Assembly (NCBI GenBank): GCA_021648085.1
Contig: JAKITS010000001.1
Span: 618,759-682,758, forward strand
Direction of reading: 5' to 3'
Source: Candidatus Magasanikiibacteriota bacterium
GTDB taxonomy: Bacteria; Patescibacteriota; Patescibacteriia; Magasanikbacterales; UBA922
Length of the DNA stretch: 64,000 nt
A model generated the notes under the pieces. It was given only the letters and a program-made list of their open reading frames with translations. It made no database searches and had not been told where the DNA came from. Position numbers and translations under genes: made by a program. Positions 1-36,855 of the stretch are shown here, in pieces (position 1 is the stretch's first letter; each line of letters opens with the position of its first letter).

Positions 1-437
<437 letters not shown>

Positions 438-639
438 ATAAAAGAGATATTAAAAACCGAAGTTTTTACCCTCTCTATAAAAGTTATTTCCTAGAGTTTC
501 TTTATTTTTTGAATAGACATTTTCCCGCTTTAGATAAACTAAAGCGATAGAAGTCTTTGTCACTTTCTTATTGTGAATTGTTTGGTTAATTACATTGTAA
601 TGTTCGACGCATTTTTTCCGTTATCTAAATGCAGTTGCA

Positions 640-9231: not shown

Positions 9232-9440
9232 ATTTATTTAAAGTAAGACTATATAATATCAAAAATAGTGTAAATAAAAAAGCACCTATTTTAAAGGTGC
9301 TTGTTTTGGAGAATTCGTAATACTTCCATTAGATCTTTTAGAAATTCATCAATTTGTTTAATATACTTAATATCATGATTAATAAGCCAAAGATCGCTTT
9401 TCAAAAATGTTTTATATCCAATAAATCTTTGGGTACACTC

Positions 9441-9713
9441 TTATCTTCTTTTTCGAAGTTCTAACCAAAACTTAGCATTATCTTTTAAATTATTCAAAAT
9501 AAGAATTTCATCTTCACTAAAATTCTCAGATACAGAAATATTTTTTATTTCAATTCTTTTTTCTGCAAACCAATTTTCATCTCTAAAATATTCATCATAA
9601 AATACTTTTGCCAATCTCTTTTTTTCTTTTGAATATTCGTAATATTTTATCGGCAAAACAACAAGCCACAAAATAATAAATAAAACAAAACAAAATTGAA
9701 TTGTTTCAAACAT
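9441..9713 (-). CDS. Small membrane-anchored hypothetical protein (array member 1; N-terminal TM helix, charged C-terminal region)
   Basis: 90 aa. It has its own promoter and RBS (aggaag) in the upstream cassette. Confidence 0.5.
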   Translation of the reverse strand: MFETIQFCFVLFIILWLVVLPIKYYEYSKEKKRLAKVFYDEYFRDENWFAEKRIEIKNISVSENFSEDEILILNNLKDNAKFWLELRKRR

Positions 9714-9749
9714 GTCACTTCCTAAAATGAAAAGAACTTTACCTGCCTA

Positions 9750-9806
9750 AATATAAACTAAAAATATATTTTTGTCAATAAAAAAAGACGGCTAAATTTA
9801 GCCGTC
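9750..9806 (-). promoter_or_regulatory. Terminator-promoter cassette: hairpin gacggc-taaattta-gccgtc plus T-tract, followed by TTGACA, a 17-nt spacer and TATATT
   Basis: Hairpin at 9787..9806 with a T-run on the minus strand. Promoter ttgaca (9778..9773) and tatatt (9755..9750). Similar cassettes recur at 10329..10406, 11203..11259 and 12028..12133. Confidence 0.55.
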
Positions 9807-9812
9807 GTGTTT

Positions 9813-10328
9813 TTAATGAAGATAACTCTCGTCATCTTTTTTTATATTAAAATCCTCTTTCAACTCTTCCAACTCGACAATCAAATCTTCAATCTCATCG
9901 AAGAGGCTTTCCAAAAAAATATCCTCTTCTTTTATTTTTTCTATACCAGATTCAATAATCAAAACATCAAGCCTCAAAACAAAAAAGTTGGTAATTGGAT
10001 AATGTATTTTATTTATATTTTTTTGTACACTATCTTGAAACCCTCTTTTTCTTTCTAAAGACCTTTCAATCATTGTGTGATTTTGCAATGATAAGGCATA
10101 AATACTAGCATCTGGATATTCCAAAAATAAAAAATTTCTATAACTTTCAGACGATTTACTTTGTTTTTTATACCAACTATTTTCCAAACAATATAAATCT
10201 CTAAATTTTTCTACTAATTCTTTTTTTCTTTTTTGAAGTTTTATTACAGTCCAAGGTCTAATCCAAAAAAGTGCTGAAAAAATAAAAAGTACAATTGAAA
10301 CAGAAAGGAAAATACTTTCAATACTCAT
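9813..10328 (-). CDS. Small membrane-anchored hypothetical protein (array member 2; N-terminal TM helix, acidic coiled-coil-like C-terminus)
   Basis: 171 aa. Flanked by cassettes on both sides. Confidence 0.5.
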   Translation of the reverse strand: MSIESIFLSVSIVLFIFSALFWIRPWTVIKLQKRKKELVEKFRDLYCLENSWYKKQSKSSESYRNFLFLEYPDASIYALSLQNHTMIERSLERKRGFQDSVQKNINKIHYPITNFFVLRLDVLIIESGIEKIKEEDIFLESLFDEIEDLIVELEELKEDFNIKKDDESYLH

Positions 10329-10406
10329 TTAAACCCCTTTGTTGTATTTATATACCCAAATAAATATAAACCATTTTTCACATTTTGTCAATAAAAAAGC
10401 GTCCAA

Positions 10407-10868
10407 TTAAGAACGCTTTGTTTTTTTATTTAAAAGTTTTTTAAACTCAGAAAATAATTTTTCCAAATCTTTATCATCTTTTTCAAGAGATTGTAATAAA
10501 ACTTCCAACCCTTTAATTTCAAGAGAGACACCTCTTAATGACCAAATAATTTTGTGTCTATGTTTAAATTTATTTAATAAACTATCTTGCGATAATTTAC
10601 GCGAATAGAGTGTTTCTAAAATTCTATAATTTATAAAACTTATATTTTTTAAAGTTTTATTTTCTGCAGAATCCTGCAATTTAGAAAAGTACTCAAAAGA
10701 TTCTAACTTCTTTTTTTCATAATATGTTACATCTTTAAATAAAAACCTAAAAAAATTCTCAGTTAATCTTACTCTTTTTTGATTTAGTTTATAAAATTCA
10801 ATCAATCTTTCGAAAAAGAAAAGAAAACAACCAGCTAAAATTATAATCACAAAGATATAATAATACAT
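10407..10868 (-). CDS. Small membrane-anchored hypothetical protein (array member 3)
   Basis: 153 aa with an N-terminal TM helix. It lies 1 nt downstream of the 10870..11202 ORF, so the two are probably co-transcribed. Confidence 0.5.
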   Translation of the reverse strand: MYYYIFVIIILAGCFLFFFERLIEFYKLNQKRVRLTENFFRFLFKDVTYYEKKKLESFEYFSKLQDSAENKTLKNISFINYRILETLYSRKLSQDSLLNKFKHRHKIIWSLRGVSLEIKGLEVLLQSLEKDDKDLEKLFSEFKKLLNKKTKRS

Positions 10869-10869
10869 T

Positions 10870-11202
10870 TTAAAACTCCTTTTTTATTTTTTTCACAAAA
10901 TAAGATGATGTGAAATAAAGTAAAAATAAAATTATAGTAAAAATTAAAATTTTAGCACCATAAAACAATATATATGCGACTGTTAAAATAACTGCACCAG
11001 CCCCAAACAATCCACAAAAACTAGCGAGATAAAGAGATGGTTCTGAGATATTTTCGCTGTCAGTTTCAACCCTTATCAATAATGAAATCCACCTTGAAAA
11101 AAAATAAAGAGTTGTAAAAATGATAAACGAATAAAAAATATAAGTAGAAAGAGCAATCCCAAACAACATAATAACCTCCTTTGTTATTTTTATGTACTCC
11201 AT
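10870..11202 (-). CDS. Small polytopic membrane protein (array member 4; three predicted TM helices)
   Basis: 110 aa and very hydrophobic. An RBS aaaggagg precedes its ATG and a TTGACA/17-nt/TATCTT promoter lies just upstream. Confidence 0.5.
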   Translation of the reverse strand: MEYIKITKEVIMLFGIALSTYIFYSFIIFTTLYFFSRWISLLIRVETDSENISEPSLYLASFCGLFGAGAVILTVAYILFYGAKILIFTIILFLLYFTSSYFVKKIKKEF

Positions 11203-11259
11203 TAAAGATAAACTAAATTTTACTTTTTGTCAACAAAAAAGACGGCTTTTTTAAGCCGT

Positions 11260-12027
11260 CTATACCTCACACTCATCACCTTCTTCTACAATTTCCTTCT
11301 CATCCTCTCCTAACTCTGCAAAAATATCAAAATCCAACTCATGCTGAAGCTCGTCTATTCCAACCTGCCTATCTAAAAAATATTTCTCTGAAATATTTTT
11401 TAGAGTTGGAATAGTAAGATCACTATCAATATTAGACCTTTGTAAAAGCTGAATCATATCTATTTCATCCTCAAAATGAGATAAAGCAATATTACAATCT
11501 CCAATTTTATTCTTAACCTCTCTCAATTCGCCTACTAAATCAGCTATTTTGCAATTATTGGAATTCACAGCAATGTCTCCCAAATTATTACTATGCCTGC
11601 CTAAAATATCTAACTCTATTTTACGCTCCTCCAATTTAATTAATATTTTTTTAATCTCCCTTTTTCTTTTACACCAATAAGGTAGATGCCTAAAAATTAA
11701 ATCTTTTAAATACTCTCTTTCTTGCCAAAAATCTCTAGAACTCTCTTTTGGAATCTTATTAAACCTATGTTTCATTCTTCTTATGTAGCCATCGTCATAG
11801 TTTTTTTCTTGCTCTTCTGAAAAAGTTAACTCTTCTTTTTCCTTTTTCACACCAATTGCACCAAAAATTTTTAAAAGTATTACATCAAAAATATTATTTA
11901 AAAAATCAAAAATAGAAAAACCATTATTTTCTAATCTATTTGAAAATTTAAGATAAAACGCATAAAACAAAAATAAAAATATTATTAAAGTAAATATAAT
12001 ATAAAATAGATCCATTTTTCCCTCCAC
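11260..12027 (-). CDS. Membrane-anchored hypothetical protein (array member 5; N-terminal TM helix, long charged region with a highly acidic C-terminus)
   Basis: 255 aa. RBS ggaggg. Upstream promoter TTGACA, 17-nt spacer, TAAGTT with terminator hairpin aaaggcatc-ttcg-gatgccttt. Confidence 0.5.
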   Translation of the reverse strand: MEGKMDLFYIIFTLIIFLFLFYAFYLKFSNRLENNGFSIFDFLNNIFDVILLKIFGAIGVKKEKEELTFSEEQEKNYDDGYIRRMKHRFNKIPKESSRDFWQEREYLKDLIFRHLPYWCKRKREIKKILIKLEERKIELDILGRHSNNLGDIAVNSNNCKIADLVGELREVKNKIGDCNIALSHFEDEIDMIQLLQRSNIDSDLTIPTLKNISEKYFLDRQVGIDELQHELDFDIFAELGEDEKEIVEEGDECEV

Positions 12028-12133
12028 TAGTTTTAAAGATCTAAGTTAAACTTAGCCTAAAAAATATCCAATGTCAATTGAAAAAATATTTTTACAAAAA
12101 AAAGGCATCCGAAGATGCCTTTTGAAAAACTAC

Positions 12134-12862
12134 TTAAAATTTAATTCTATAACCAACCATACTAGGACTTATAACCAGAGAACTCAATAAACCCTCCTCT
12201 TCACCTGTTAAAGACATATCAAAAACCTTTTTTAACCCCTTGTACAGTGGATATATGGAAAGTCCAGAAAGAACCAAAATTGTACCCCGTACAGCCAACT
12301 TCTCCCACAGAGAAGTATATCCCATATACTTTTCAAACATAACCAAATCATTAGTAGGACTATCGTAACAAATACCAGAACAAACATCTCGTGTAAAATC
12401 AATCCAAGCACCAAATGCAAATACCCACAATCCAAGCTGTGCATACTGATTACTGGGTAAAACATCATATTGCTCCAAAATAACATATGAATACAATACA
12501 CTCACACTTGTAAACTTGGGAGAAATAAAAATTAATGCTTCAGGACCAGACCTAATTTTATCCGTAGACCTTCCAGAAACTCCAAAATGAAATCCATGTT
12601 TATTTATTCCTGGATATGGTTGAAATTTTTCTATTTCATAACCTTCAGAAAGTGCAACGATAGTATGCGTACCCTCATGAATAAATGTCTGTAGAAAAAA
12701 GTCAGATACCAACATTCCAACACCTACACCAATCAAGTCATAATTATCAGCTGTAGAATTTTCCAATTTTTCTTTTTCTACCACTTCAGCGTATATATTA
12801 TTTTCTATACACCCAAAAAATAAAATGCCTATGAAAAGAGAAACCCAAAACTTACTAAACAT
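12134..12862 (-). CDS. Secreted hypothetical protein with an HExxH motif (possible zinc metallopeptidase)
   Basis: 242 aa with an N-terminal signal-like hydrophobic segment and an IHEGTHT motif. Upstream promoter TTGACA, 17-nt spacer, TATTAT and RBS aaagaggtg. Confidence 0.5.
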   Translation of the reverse strand: MFSKFWVSLFIGILFFGCIENNIYAEVVEKEKLENSTADNYDLIGVGVGMLVSDFFLQTFIHEGTHTIVALSEGYEIEKFQPYPGINKHGFHFGVSGRSTDKIRSGPEALIFISPKFTSVSVLYSYVILEQYDVLPSNQYAQLGLWVFAFGAWIDFTRDVCSGICYDSPTNDLVMFEKYMGYTSLWEKLAVRGTILVLSGLSIYPLYKGLKKVFDMSLTGEEEGLLSSLVISPSMVGYRIKF

Positions 12863-13010
12863 CTAAACACCTCTTTTGTGTGTATGTTAACTAAAAATTT
12901 ACTTTTAAAGAACAGCTGATAATAACACAAAATAAGACTTTTGTCAAGTATGCAATTAGGTTTTTAAGTTGAATAAAACATTTAAATGTGCTATTATCAA
13001 TTAAACATAA

Positions 13011-14210
<1,200 letters not shown>

Positions 14211-14240: not shown

Positions 14241-14552
14241 TTGGAGGAAAAAGTGAGAAAACAAAAAACAAAATTAAGTGAAAAGTTAAATTATCTATCA
14301 ATTACCACAGCTTATTTAATTTTTTTCTTGGCAATGAATAAACTGCCTCATTTAAACAAAAGAAAGGTTCAGGTTAATAAAAAAGATACAATATCAATAA
14401 TGATTTTGGTCATTTCACTCTTTTCCACCTCTCCAATTTGGATTCCAATTTTAGCTCTTTCTGTATTTATCGCACATTTTGAAAACAAAAAAAGAGATAG
14501 AAATACCAAAAGAAGAGAATATAAAGTTAAAAACAGAAGTATTAAAACTTAA
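14241..14552 (+). CDS. Hypothetical small membrane protein (TTG start)
   Basis: 103 aa with two hydrophobic segments. Low-complexity basic C-terminus. Confidence 0.35.
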   Translation: MEEKVRKQKTKLSEKLNYLSITTAYLIFFLAMNKLPHLNKRKVQVNKKDTISIMILVISLFSTSPIWIPILALSVFIAHFENKKRDRNTKRREYKVKNRSIKT

Positions 14553-36008: not shown

Positions 36009-36561
36009 AAAAAAATAAAAGCCCTAAGGACTATTTTCAAATAAACTTTCTTTTTTGAAAATACATTTGAAGACAGTACTTTTGGGAATGAATTTACAAT
36101 TTATAATACTACTTTTTCAGACTTTTGTCAAGAAGATGGTATGAAACAAATAAAAAAAATGGTGATTTTTATTACCGTTTTTTTACTTATCTTTTTTTAC
36201 AGCACACTCAACAACCAAAACAGTGAGTTGTTTTGATGAATTCCAATGACATGAACACTCATCAACTATAAAAGTTCTCATTTCTATCTTAATATTTCTT
36301 CTTGGTATTCTCGGCCATTTTTTCTTTATAGCGTCACCAAGATACTTAAATGTTCAAAATTAAACTCATCTTGGTAAATTACATTTTCAGTACCATCTGG
36401 TCGCATAGATGTACAAGACACCTTTTGAGACTTCTTTTGACTAAATAAAGAACGCAAACTAATACTAGCTATTACTTCATATTTTATCAAGAAAAGATTT
36501 TTAAATAAAATAAAAAACGACAATACATATAACATTGTCGTTTTTAGCAAAAAACTATTTT

Positions 36562-36855
36562 CTATCTTTCAAAGAAAGAAATATAGAAAGTATTTTTTTC
36601 CACCTCAATTTCTTTTGGCGAAACGAGCAATGCTCGTTCTGTGGAGATAAACATCTTACCTCCTTTTTGCCCAAACTGAAAAACTCCTTTTTTCTCTCCT
36701 GTTTCTTTTAAAACAAGAGCAGTTTTTTTTGCAACTTCAAATACCCCATCTACAAATTCAAAATTGAACATATCTTCACCTTTTTGTTGTTTTGTGAACC
36801 CCGTCTCATTTTTCATAAGACTTAATATAATAATATAAATTTTACTTTTTGTCAA
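36562..36855 (-). CDS. Hypothetical protein (97 aa). Its start overlaps the stop of the upstream kinase-like gene by 4 nt
   Basis: ATGA-type overlap coupling with 36852..37550. Confidence 0.4.
   Translation of the reverse strand: MTKSKIYIIILSLMKNETGFTKQQKGEDMFNFEFVDGVFEVAKKTALVLKETGEKKGVFQFGQKGGKMFISTERALLVSPKEIEVEKNTFYISFFER

Follow-up and report, generated by a model that had tools for sequence, protein, structure and literature searches.

A candidate lineage-restricted membrane gene module with apparently copied terminator–promoter cassettes in the pcrA–tgt interval of a Magasanikbacteria genome

In site-2 proteases, the third zinc ligand is an Asp that belongs to an LDG-type motif on a separate TM helix, and the SpoIVFB–BofA–SpoIVFA assembly of B. 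subtilis is a site-2-protease (M50/M50B) complex with small membrane partners. FtsL, FtsB, and DivIC have an N-in/C-out topology, and type IV pilins carry a short, basic leader whose last residue is Gly, followed by a hydrophobic N-terminus of the F/M-T-L-I-E type and an extracytoplasmic C-terminal domain. Phage morons, such as the HK97 gene 15 element, consist of a small gene placed between its own sigma-70 promoter and an intrinsic terminator, with an inner-membrane protein as product (PMC3594210). Here, we compare with these systems an array of five small genes, and the HExxH gene that adjoins it, from a 64-kb stretch of DNA (the window) of a very small, uncultured member of Candidatus Magasanikbacteria.

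Gene content and predicted topology

Five consecutive open reading frames lie on the minus strand, each opening with a hydrophobic helix by hydropathy (Table 1), just as the first-pass annotation of this DNA had reported. Two of the sizes that it gave change with start-codon revision, p110 being reduced from 110 to 99 aa and p255 from 255 to 251 aa; in the case of p110, the start at 11169 is preferred because the ATG at 11202 sits upstream of the predicted transcription start. The five frames are genuine genes. Since stops make up 7% of codons in the region, open frames of 150–250 codons are very unlikely to arise by chance (about 2e-5 for 150 codons and 1e-8 for 250 codons), and an RBS is present at the right distance for every frame. 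The reading that these are chance open frames within an AT-rich spacer draws on the lack of any matching database family and on the very low G+C of the five small genes (22–27.5%, whereas 23 housekeeping genes average 34% and the HExxH gene stands at 33.6%). The stop density, the correctly spaced RBSs, and the orthologues on a related metagenome contig (L162), which match in length and in conserved motif blocks, make the probability of that reading negligible. The flanking genes ndk, pcrA, tgt, and mltG are housekeeping genes, with the conserved, divergent pcrA and tgt bounding the slot; no integrase lies by the locus, and there is no tRNA within 6 kb of it.

Table 1. Predicted features of the array and the adjoining HExxH gene, in order of transcription (positions in the window)
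Feature	Position	Strand	Remarks
Promoter of HExxH gene	12919..12947	-	TTGACA-17-TATTAT with TG; divergent from tgt
HExxH membrane lipoprotein (L3J07_03235)	12134..12862	-	242 aa; first gene of conserved module
Terminator after HExxH gene	12100..12123	-	UUCG loop, -13.5 kcal/mol
Promoter of p255	12049..12077	-	TTGACA-17-TAAGTT; 23 nt past terminator stem
p255	11260..12015	-	251 aa; RBS-supported start ATG 12015
Terminator after p255	11240..11261	-	GACGGC/GCCGTC stem, -13.7 kcal/mol; stop codon overlapped
Promoter of p110–p153 unit	11205..11233	-	TTGACA-17-TATCTT; 6 nt past terminator stem
p110	10870..11169	-	99 aa; start ATG 11169
p153 (L3J07_03220), paralogue 1	10407..10868	-	1 nt past p110 stop; own RBS; no cassette ahead
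Terminator after p153	10396..10419	-	-11.5 kcal/mol
Promoter of p171	10363..10391	-	TTGACA-17-TATATT; promoter, 5'UTR, and RBS ~80% identical to those of p110
p171 (L3J07_03215), paralogue 2	9813..10328	-	
Terminator after p171	9787..9806	-	-13.4 kcal/mol; stem identical to p255 terminator
Promoter of p90	9750..9778	-	TTGACA-17-TATATT; 8 nt past terminator stem
p90 (L3J07_03210), paralogue 3	9441..9713	-	truncated by in-frame TAA
Open continuation of p90 frame	9294..9438	-	49 codons; stop inside closing terminator
Array-closing terminator	9280..9302	-	-11.4 kcal/mol; holds stop of extended p90 frame; upstream of pcrA

Of the five proteins, only p110 is polytopic, with about three TM helices by hydropathy; its N-terminus is uncharged, its first loop acidic, and its C-terminus (VKKIKKEF) rich in K. 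The other four have charged tails. In p255, an N-terminal TM helix and a second hydrophobic or amphipathic helix are followed by an acidic helical tail of ~190 aa. The tails had been called coiled-coil-like, a description that p171, p153, and p255 bear out, each over just one short heptad stretch of ~28 residues at the C-terminus (p 0.003–0.03), and for which p90 shows no heptad support. It had also been suggested that all five form one family, but only p153, p171, and p90 are related, and neither p255 nor p110 belongs with them (hhalign gave a probability of 0.2% for a relation between the p153 and p255 families). For the related three, the weak shared motif noted earlier proves real and their standing as divergent paralogues is supported: p171 and p153 align with a z of 8.7 (6.9 without the TM helix), and the L162 orthologue, R_152, links p90 (z 12.1 and 34% identity, the closest of the three) with p171 (z 7.1). 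The family motif is basic and juxtamembrane, P-I-x-Y-Y...KKK-x-L...F...Y-C/F-R...W-Y/F, and three members have an acidic residue at position 3–5.

In each of the four p153-family members, K/R residues are missing ahead of the helix and number four to six in the 15 residues after it, and a signal-peptide n-region is absent from the four; by the positive-inside rule, their tails are thus predicted to be cytoplasmic (N-out/C-in). The charged helical tails would then line the cytoplasmic face of the membrane, and the earlier idea of surface proteins does not agree with this charge distribution. As for p90, its frame continues beyond the stop codon into a stretch that aligns with the C-termini of R_152 and p171. 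We read p90 as a nonsense-truncated copy of a ~139-aa gene, with the continuation as the remnant of its C-terminal third.

The HExxH gene does adjoin the array, as had been noted, but it lies upstream in the direction of transcription, and its product, described earlier as secreted, is predicted to be a membrane lipoprotein and not a soluble protein, given a conserved lipobox cysteine (Cys18) and four to five hydrophobic segments. The protein also contains a conserved CSGIC. Its HEGTH (62–66) closes a hydrophobic stretch (43–61) and is invariant in all homologues, and D155, D159, and D172 (GAWxD...D, ND) are likewise invariant; no LDG motif was recognized. Sub-threshold matches to Pfam Peptidase_M50/M50B were found in three of the four homologues tested (the window protein, P0004 of L162, and the homologue at locus L082), scoring 12–13.5 bits (E 0.047–0.17) against cut-offs of 26–27.2 bits and spanning only ~25 residues around HExxH.

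None of the six proteins reached threshold in Pfam, NCBIfam, PHROGs, or PADLOC, and none of five homologues from L162, L082, and elsewhere did so in Pfam. PHROGs gave no match with E below 0.001, and the sole PADLOC match, of p171 to PD-Lambda-2_C, had 17.6 bits and an E of 0.0008 and covered 54 residues. Sequence and profile searches of the PDB returned only insignificant matches of the coiled-coil type. AlphaFold2 models had a mean pLDDT of 51 for p255 (from a single sequence) and 37.5 for the HExxH protein (from a three-sequence alignment), which made them unfit for a fold search. Several identities were considered and rejected: a type IV pilin or pseudopilin (no leader, no N_methyl match, and a basic cluster after the helix, not before it); FtsL, FtsB, or DivIC (no Pfam or NCBIfam match, K/R on the C side of the helix, and no occurrence at other Magasanikbacteria loci); and a holin–spanin cassette (best p110 holin match at E 0.098, its 13.2 bits falling short of the cut-off, 28.4; no muralytic enzyme nearby).

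Terminator–promoter cassettes

The first-pass annotation placed the same regulatory module between all units. Four such cassettes exist for the five genes, and none lies between p110 and p153, which are separated by 1 nt and share one, so four transcription units are predicted. In each cassette, a stable, G+C-rich hairpin with a T-run is followed by TTGACA-N17, a second element (TAAGTT, TATCTT, TATATT, and TATATT, respectively), and an RBS. The four cassette hairpins and the one that closes the array (9302–9280) have folding energies of −11.4 to −13.7 kcal/mol with z between −4 and −6, and the region holds six terminator-like sites versus 1.2 ± 1.0 in shuffles. The array makes up ~5% of the window yet contains 5 of its 18 TTGACA-N16-18-TAnnnT promoters, and all three places in the window at which TTGACA starts 5–8 nt past a terminator stem fall within it. 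Both L162 and L082 retain the terminator that follows the HExxH gene, in which one pair shows a compensatory change, and L162 has a similar hairpin at the position equivalent to the p255 terminator.

Two hairpins that had been singled out as near-identical (9787–9806 and 11241–11260) have identical stems (GACGGC/GCCGTC), which occur nowhere else in the 64 kb. The likeness extends beyond the hairpins: the p110 and p171 cassettes are ~80% identical over 69 nt, 5′UTR included (score 65), and the p110 and p90 cassettes ~85% over 60 nt, hairpin included (score 56), where shuffles reached a maximum of 36. Alignments of this length and identity, above the shuffle maximum, bear out the earlier suggestion of cassette duplication, and the cassettes are homologous, with a likeness that exceeds the promoter consensus. 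A scan of the cassettes against Rfam gave nothing above the gathering score; no shared operator-like element or obvious regulator site was seen at the near-consensus promoters, and no phase-variation device at the array. Given a sigma-70 promoter close to consensus and a strong RBS in every unit, and a terminator after every gene but p110, expression most likely proceeds through short, separate transcripts at high levels, the doses of which could be set independently.

Relatives and proposed history

On L162, the order is tgt, the HExxH gene, a p255-like gene (249 aa), a gene for a polytopic protein of 117 aa, a p153-like gene (152 aa), and pcrA. The p90 gene is the positional orthologue of this p153-like gene, as it adjoins pcrA and has a similar 5′UTR. 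A comparison of copy number, which had been proposed as a check, does show variation, with one p153-family gene in L162 versus three in the window; this single copy and the synteny suggest that the ancestral unit was a four-gene membrane module, the last gene of which was triplicated in the window lineage. Cassette elements are also found in L162, with a terminator and TTGACA before both the p255-like and the 117-aa gene, TTGACA before the p153-like gene, and a terminator after it. Identity between the window and L162 is 79% for Tgt, 72% for PcrA, 54% for the HExxH protein, 31–34% for the p153 family, and 27% over the full length for p255 (P0008 in L162). The similarity of p110 to its positional counterpart is not significant (z 0.5); all that the two share is position, size, and hydropathy.

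The pcrA–tgt gap spans 76 bp to 6.3 kb among 23 Magasanikbacteria loci, with contents that are unrelated, and the array genes were not found at the other loci examined. Among 161 fetched loci searched by tblastn and profile HMMs, members of the three families occur only at L162, L001, and L082; the only relative with the small genes is L162, together with its fragment L001, so that two lineages form the basis for calling the module conserved. No further homologue was found among 5.8 billion proteins or 1.84 billion cluster representatives. Word-indexed searches with p153, the HExxH protein, and a profile of the three paralogues returned only the source genome and, from short contigs, two homologues of the HExxH protein; p171 had no exact match on record, and a metagenome scan with the HExxH alignment gave none. 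Viral contigs (IMG/VR) scanned with the p255 and HExxH alignments gave no match, the p153-family alignment being too divergent for such search patterns, and neither did tblastn of p255 and the HExxH protein against GenBank phages and PLSDB plasmids.

We consider it somewhat probable that a lineage-restricted module of fast-evolving membrane genes occupies a variable pcrA–tgt slot here, with its last gene tandemly tripled. The ancestral module would have comprised the HExxH membrane lipoprotein, a p255 of ~250 aa, a three-helix p110 of ~100 aa, and one p153-family gene of ~140–150 aa. In the window lineage, the last gene would have multiplied to the three tandem copies p153, p171, and p90, while the new transcription units gained copies of the terminator–promoter–5′UTR cassette that precedes p110. 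A later nonsense codon has shortened p90, and the whole would be birth-and-death evolution of tandem paralogues. The window paralogues are 23–25% identical to one another versus 31–34% to the L162 orthologue, with cassettes at 80–85%, so duplication of gene and cassette may not have been one event; if this explanation holds, cassette gene conversion or accelerated protein divergence must be invoked. Overall, the cluster is probably a case of ordinary accessory-gene evolution.

Alternative readings and comparison with known systems

Might the array instead consist of moron-like conflict genes, that is, insulated and recently gained inner-membrane proteins that act in superinfection exclusion (as HK97 gp15 does) or abortive infection and diverge in an arms race? 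A promoter and terminator for each unit and a G+C well below that of the neighbors fit the moron definition (PMC3594210), as do small inner-membrane products, and the occupancy of a variable hotspot, the very fast divergence relative to the flanks, and the tandem expansion with one decaying copy would all agree. We find this reading fairly unlikely nonetheless, as the flanks and the lack of an integrase or close tRNA offer no phage or mobile-element context, PHROGs, IMG/VR, GenBank phages, and plasmids yielded nothing, the single PADLOC match is short, and occurrence at the same site in a relative with a Tgt 79% identical suggests long vertical residence. The proposal of a variable, differentially expressed family of surface or anchor proteins, with charged tails outside the cell, would account for three paralogues that vary in copy number, and for the promoter before each gene, and most of the protein families enriched in CPR comprise membrane proteins of unknown function, some of them tied to cell–cell interaction (PMC6744442). 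The absent n-region and the K/R clusters right after the helix in all four members point to the opposite orientation, only three of the five proteins are related, and neither a phase-variation device nor an obvious regulator site accompanies the near-consensus promoters; we judge it decidedly improbable.

A degenerate lysis-type phage cassette or a housekeeping envelope set, in which p110 would be holin-like and the bitopic proteins spanin-, FtsL/DivIC-, or pilin-like, is highly improbable. The predicted topology of p110 is that of a class I holin (three TM helices, N-out/C-in, and a charged, K-rich C-terminal tail), Pfam gives weak holin matches (E 0.098 and 0.51), and the acidic residue near the N-terminus of three family members loosely recalls mature pilins. 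However, the locus has neither an endolysin nor phage genes nearby and no pilin leader, the holin, DivIC/FtsL, and N_methyl matches are all below threshold in Pfam and NCBIfam, and the charge distribution predicts an orientation opposite to that of spanins, FtsL/FtsB, and pilins. Being absent from the other Magasanikbacteria loci examined, the genes cannot be core divisome parts; the divisome or secretion role mooted earlier finds no support in family matches, topology, or distribution.

Within the preferred reading of a lineage-restricted module, we tentatively raise the possibility, which we think doubtful, that the four products form a membrane complex in which the HExxH protein is a site-2-protease-type zinc protease and the anchored proteins are its partners, regulators, or substrates; the joint function is suggested by conserved adjacency in two lineages only. 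It is unlikely that the locus represents an undescribed, CPR-lineage-specific membrane system in which a site-2-protease-like enzyme acts with tethered, cytoplasm-facing partners or substrates that diversify by insulated tandem birth and death. If it did, its role could lie in sensing or withstanding a challenge from outside, for example phage or host contact, and the copied cassette would be a route by which new paralogues gain independent expression. Membrane protein families that lack annotation are numerous in CPR bacteria. The locus settles no long-standing question, but it shows cleanly how such genes appear to evolve, through a hotspot module, triplication, copied cassettes, and a decaying copy. 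It adds three new orphan families (the HExxH lipoprotein, p255, and the p153 family), whose motifs are defined and whose topology can be tested, and a compact natural terminator–promoter unit (hairpin, T6, and TTGACA within 5–8 nt) that can be mapped in metatranscriptomes.

Set against the described systems, the array resembles phage morons in that its units have their own promoters and terminators, a G+C unlike that of neighboring genes, and predicted small inner-membrane products. It differs in lying outside any phage or prophage genome, as judged from the flanks, PHROGs, IMG/VR, and GenBank phages, with no viral homologues found, in keeping, across two lineages, to one chromosomal site flanked by housekeeping genes, and in joining several units in tandem, three of them paralogous. 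As in SpoIVFB–BofA–SpoIVFA, the membrane protein with HExxH is polytopic and has the motif at the end of a hydrophobic helix, and its gene adjoins those for a ~100-aa polytopic and a ~250-aa membrane-anchored protein. Unlike classic M50 proteases, which lack a lipoprotein signal, the HExxH protein has one, shows no recognized LDG-type motif, and scores below the Pfam cut-offs; the partners resemble neither BofA nor SpoIVFA in sequence and carry their large domain C-terminal to the anchor. The array proteins share with FtsL, FtsB, and DivIC a small size and an N-terminal TM helix, after which comes a short helical segment of heptad-like character, but differ in matching no family, in their opposite predicted orientation, and in not being conserved even within the phylum. 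Tandem arrays of lineage-specific small membrane paralogues are a general phenomenon in reduced genomes, and CPR-enriched membrane families of unknown function are described (PMC6744442); the array is like them in its narrow taxonomic range, anchoring, lack of annotation, rapid divergence, and duplication with decay. Here, the duplicated unit in addition demonstrably carries a copied terminator–promoter–5′UTR cassette, and the array belongs to a syntenic four-gene module.

Layout of the locus and relatedness of the five proteins

The window (G+C 32%) comes from a 984-kb contig of a Candidatus Magasanikbacteria (CPR/Patescibacteria) metagenome-assembled genome, in which the five array proteins and the predicted membrane lipoprotein encoded upstream of them (HExxH) are deposited at NCBI as L3J07_03210 to L3J07_03235. 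The small genes have a G+C content of 22–27.5%, against 34% for housekeeping genes. All five ORFs open with an N-terminal hydrophobic helix, as the first-pass annotation had stated, but the lengths of 255 and 110 aa that it gave for p255 and p110 change with the RBS-supported starts; for p110 the later ATG was adopted, since the one at 11202 precedes the predicted transcription start. p110 has about three hydrophobic helices, and p255 a second one that is hydrophobic or amphipathic. The coiled-coil-like tails described earlier were recovered in part: a crude test of a/d positions places a single heptad-like stretch of 28 residues close to the C-terminus in each of p171, p153, p255 and the p255 orthologue (p 0.003–0.03), but none in p90.

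Features of the locus and of comparison contigs, in minus-strand gene order where applicable
Feature	Sequence	Coordinates	Strand	Remark
ORF downstream of tgt	window	14241-14552	+	103 aa
tgt	window	13020-14210		divergent from HExxH gene
pcrA–tgt gap	window	9232-13019		surveyed together with loci L003-L018 and L083-L096
HExxH gene	window	12862-12134	-	
HExxH terminator	window	12100-12123		
HExxH terminator	L162	1503-1526		
HExxH terminator	L082	~150-175		
p255, start codon	window	12015	-	251 aa
p255, acidic C-terminus	window	11260-11280	-	EEGDECEV
p110, promoter	window	11205-11233	-	
p110, start codon	window	11169	-	99 aa
p153	window		-	
p171	window		-	
p90	window		-	
Closing hairpin	window	9302-9280		
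pcrA	window	9231-7219	-	
ndk	window		-	
16S rRNA gene, 5' part	window	1-442	-	Rfam SSU_rRNA_bacteria, 409 bits
36855 promoter	window	36827-36855	-	
Stretch downstream of 36855 promoter	window	36009-36826		short ORFs only
Terminator in that stretch	window	36544-36514		

Of the five proteins only three are related, and these are the ones that the first-pass annotation suggested to be divergent paralogues. p171 and p153 are collinear over 144 residues at 24% identity (z 8.7 against shuffles, or 6.9 without the TM helix), and p90, which on its own shows a marginal link (z 3–4), is placed firmly in the family by R_152, an orthologue from another organism that serves as a bridge (z 12.1 and 34% identity over 79 residues with p90; z 7.1 with p171). 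The common segment proposed for these proteins is indeed found directly after the helix, as P-I-x-Y-Y...K-K-K-x-L...F...(E/L)-Y-(C/F)-R...W-(Y/F)-x-K-K. In alignments, neither p255 nor p110 resembles this family (the p153 family), nor do the two resemble each other, past hydrophobic composition, and hhalign gives a probability of 0.2% for the p153-family and p255-family alignments. p255 and its orthologue P0008 share an R-H-L-x-Y-W-x-K-R block at 109–117 and acidic C-termini in which two residues follow a conserved Cys (EEDEVCEG in P0008), which could be functional motifs of an orphan family.

All four p153-family members carry no K/R before the helix and 4–6 in the next 15 residues, and none has a signal-peptide-like basic n-region. 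The K/R-rich side of a membrane helix is cytoplasmic by the positive-inside rule, and the family is thus predicted to be N-out/C-in with cytoplasmic tails, which contradicts the surface display suggested earlier. The uncharged N-terminus of p110 and its C-terminal VKKIKKEF fit a three-helix protein in the N-out/C-in orientation. In the HExxH protein the n-region is basic and Cys18 is invariant; in the homologues this Cys forms part of a canonical lipobox (LSGC, IVGC, FVGC). The protein also has 4–5 hydrophobic segments, one of them ending in HEGTH, and an invariant CSGIC. Pfam Peptidase_M50 or M50B matches the HExxH helix alone, below threshold, in the window protein and in the P0004 and L082 homologues, and has no match in the homologue P0003; we treat a possible relationship to these families as a lead, not as membership.

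A related module in L162 and the pcrA–tgt gap

Scans of Pfam, NCBIfam, PHROGs and PADLOC gave no significant match for any array protein or for HExxH. Among 5.8 billion proteins, the p153 family was found in the source genome only and HExxH had two homologues (50–53% identity), while against 1.84 billion cluster representatives a full HMMER search returned one true relative of p255, P0008 (249 aa, 26% identity over the full length, E 5.9e-15). P0008 is encoded on the metagenome contig L162 (JGI Ga0395805_0078831, 3981 bp); L001 is a fragment from the same organism. L162 carries, after a divergent tgt, an HExxH gene (244 aa), a terminator and TTGACA, the p255-like gene, a terminator and TTGACA, a polytopic 117-aa gene, TTGACA, R_152 (152 aa), a terminator and pcrA. 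The TTGACA before R_152 overlaps the stop of the polytopic gene, with no terminator there, and this gene order indicates that both organisms have the module in common, at the same position and with the same arrangement of terminators, including the absent terminator after the polytopic gene. L162 has one p153-family gene and the window three, so that the copy-number variation anticipated for the array does occur in a relative.

Identity between the two loci falls from 79% for Tgt and 72% for PcrA to 54% for HExxH, 31–34% for the p153 family and 27% for p255; the small proteins evolve much faster than the genes around them. p110 and the polytopic gene correspond in position, size and hydropathy pattern, with an alignment that is not significant (z 0.5). 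The terminator after HExxH is conserved in three lineages with a UUCG tetraloop, and its L162 stem has a compensatory A-U to G-C change. L082, whose Tgt is 89% identical, has an HExxH homologue beside tgt (50% identical), and the contig ends 190 nt past the conserved terminator. HExxH divergence (L082 193-924 compared with window 12134-12862) does not track that of Tgt: Tgt and HExxH are 89% and 50% identical in L082, and 79% and 54% in L162, reflecting either saturation by fast HExxH evolution or gene exchange between lineages.

With Tgt as anchor, 160 loci were fetched from GTDB species-representative genomes and JGI metagenomes. pcrA and tgt are divergent neighbours in the 23 Magasanikbacteria loci holding both, separated by 76 bp to 6.3 kb of unrelated gene content, which includes a carbamoyl-phosphate-synthase-like pair (~1064 + 352 aa) in L007, L018 and L088 and hypothetical genes in others; L083 and L085 have an N-terminally anchored 278-aa protein. 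The gap looks like a recombination or insertion hotspot. None of the 23 loci carries the array, which is thus specific to its lineage and occupies a variable slot. Several MAG records bear the title "uncultured Gammaproteobacteria bacterium" (L002, L007-L011, L013, L015-L017); their Tgt is 58–89% identical to that of the window, and most of them (L007, L008, L010, L011, L015-L017) show the Magasanikbacteria pcrA–tgt arrangement; the titles are probably placeholders or wrong taxonomy. The small ORF just downstream of tgt has two hydrophobic segments and K/R-rich ends, and in part overlaps opposite-strand ORFs.

Copied cassettes and a truncated gene

Between the units stand four hairpins with T-runs, and a fifth ends the array; folded as RNA they have energies of -11.4 to -13.7 kcal/mol (z -4 to -6 relative to dinucleotide shuffles). 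Six terminator-like sites are present in the region, versus 1.2 ± 1.0 expected. Downstream of each internal hairpin stand TTGACA, a -10 box at a spacing of 17 nt (TAAGTT, TATCTT, TATATT and TATATT) and an RBS. A cassette bounding every unit, as first described, is therefore borne out by four such sets, but is missing from the 1-nt gap between p110 and p153. TTGACAAAA promoters are a style common to the whole genome. Despite this, their density in the array is exceptional within the window: of 18 TTGACA-N16-18-TAnnnT sites in 64 kb, the array holds 5 in 5% of the sequence, where ~0.9 would be expected (P ~0.002, Poisson arithmetic), and the three places where TTGACA starts 5–8 nt past a terminator stem are all in the array. 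The 36855 promoter has 20 consecutive nucleotides in common with that of p110, TTGACAAAAAGTAAAATTTA; the stretch downstream of it has no Rfam match at gathering score, and the promoter may drive a small gene or RNA.

The proposed cassette duplication is upheld by the alignments. The p110 and p171 cassettes are ~80% identical over 69 nt, from the T-run through the -35, -10 and 5'UTR to the RBS, and those of p110 and p90 share ~85% identity in a 60-nt alignment that begins at the hairpin and stops shortly after the -10 box. The two scores, 65 and 56, compare with at most 36 among shuffles. In register-anchored comparison with other window promoters, 5'UTR identity for p110/p171 is 61%, against a background of 31% and a maximum of 46%. 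The twin GACGGC...GCCGTC hairpin occurs just twice in 64 kb, and since a related hairpin follows the p255 orthologue in L162, the one after p171 is taken as the derived copy. The cassettes resemble one another far more closely than their proteins do, and R_152 is closer to the paralogues than they are among themselves. Two histories could account for this: spread or homogenisation of the cassettes at a time when the genes had already duplicated, or very rapid divergence of the proteins.

Past its TAA, the p90 frame stays open for 49 codons, with 3 and 8 stops over that span in the other two frames, and ends inside the closing terminator, in keeping with the other units, where stop codon and terminator adjoin. 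Read-through would give a product of 139 aa; it aligns with R_152 residues 10–148, its tail matches p171 residues 118–149 (z 3.6), and the p90 and R_152 5'UTRs are alike (AAAG-yy-CTTTTCA-y-TT-y-A). The read-through alignment and this 5'UTR mark p90 as a truncated positional orthologue of the single-copy gene, with an assembly error as the alternative origin of the TAA.

Origin and possible role of the module

These comparisons show a membrane module of four genes, conserved and located in a hotspot, with its last gene tandemly triplicated, its regulatory cassettes copied and one copy decaying. The array genes would be expressed as separate, strong, short transcripts, the helical tails of the anchored proteins would face the cytoplasm, and the products may act jointly, perhaps around a membrane zinc protease.

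The leading alternative is a conflict function like that of morons, for example superinfection exclusion or abortive infection. Insulated units and low G+C agree with the moron definition (PMC3594210), and the hotspot location, the rapid divergence of the small genes and the birth and death of copies could be read in the same way. However, the searches turned up nothing viral or mobile, and the module has been passed on vertically at one fixed position, so that we consider such a function unlikely. On the grounds of topology, missing family matches, restricted distribution and coding evidence, we reject surface display, pilins, FtsL/DivIC, a holin–spanin cassette and spurious ORFs.

All three protein families are orphans, found so far in 2–4 lineages, and are new in that narrow sense. 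Of 106 CPR-enriched families, 76 carry predicted TM helices, and annotation is poor for most (PMC6744442). The copied terminator–promoter–5'UTR cassette and the contrast of one versus three copies are neat, if unsurprising to a specialist: membrane gene clusters that are restricted to one lineage and have expanded by tandem paralogues are a familiar phenomenon.
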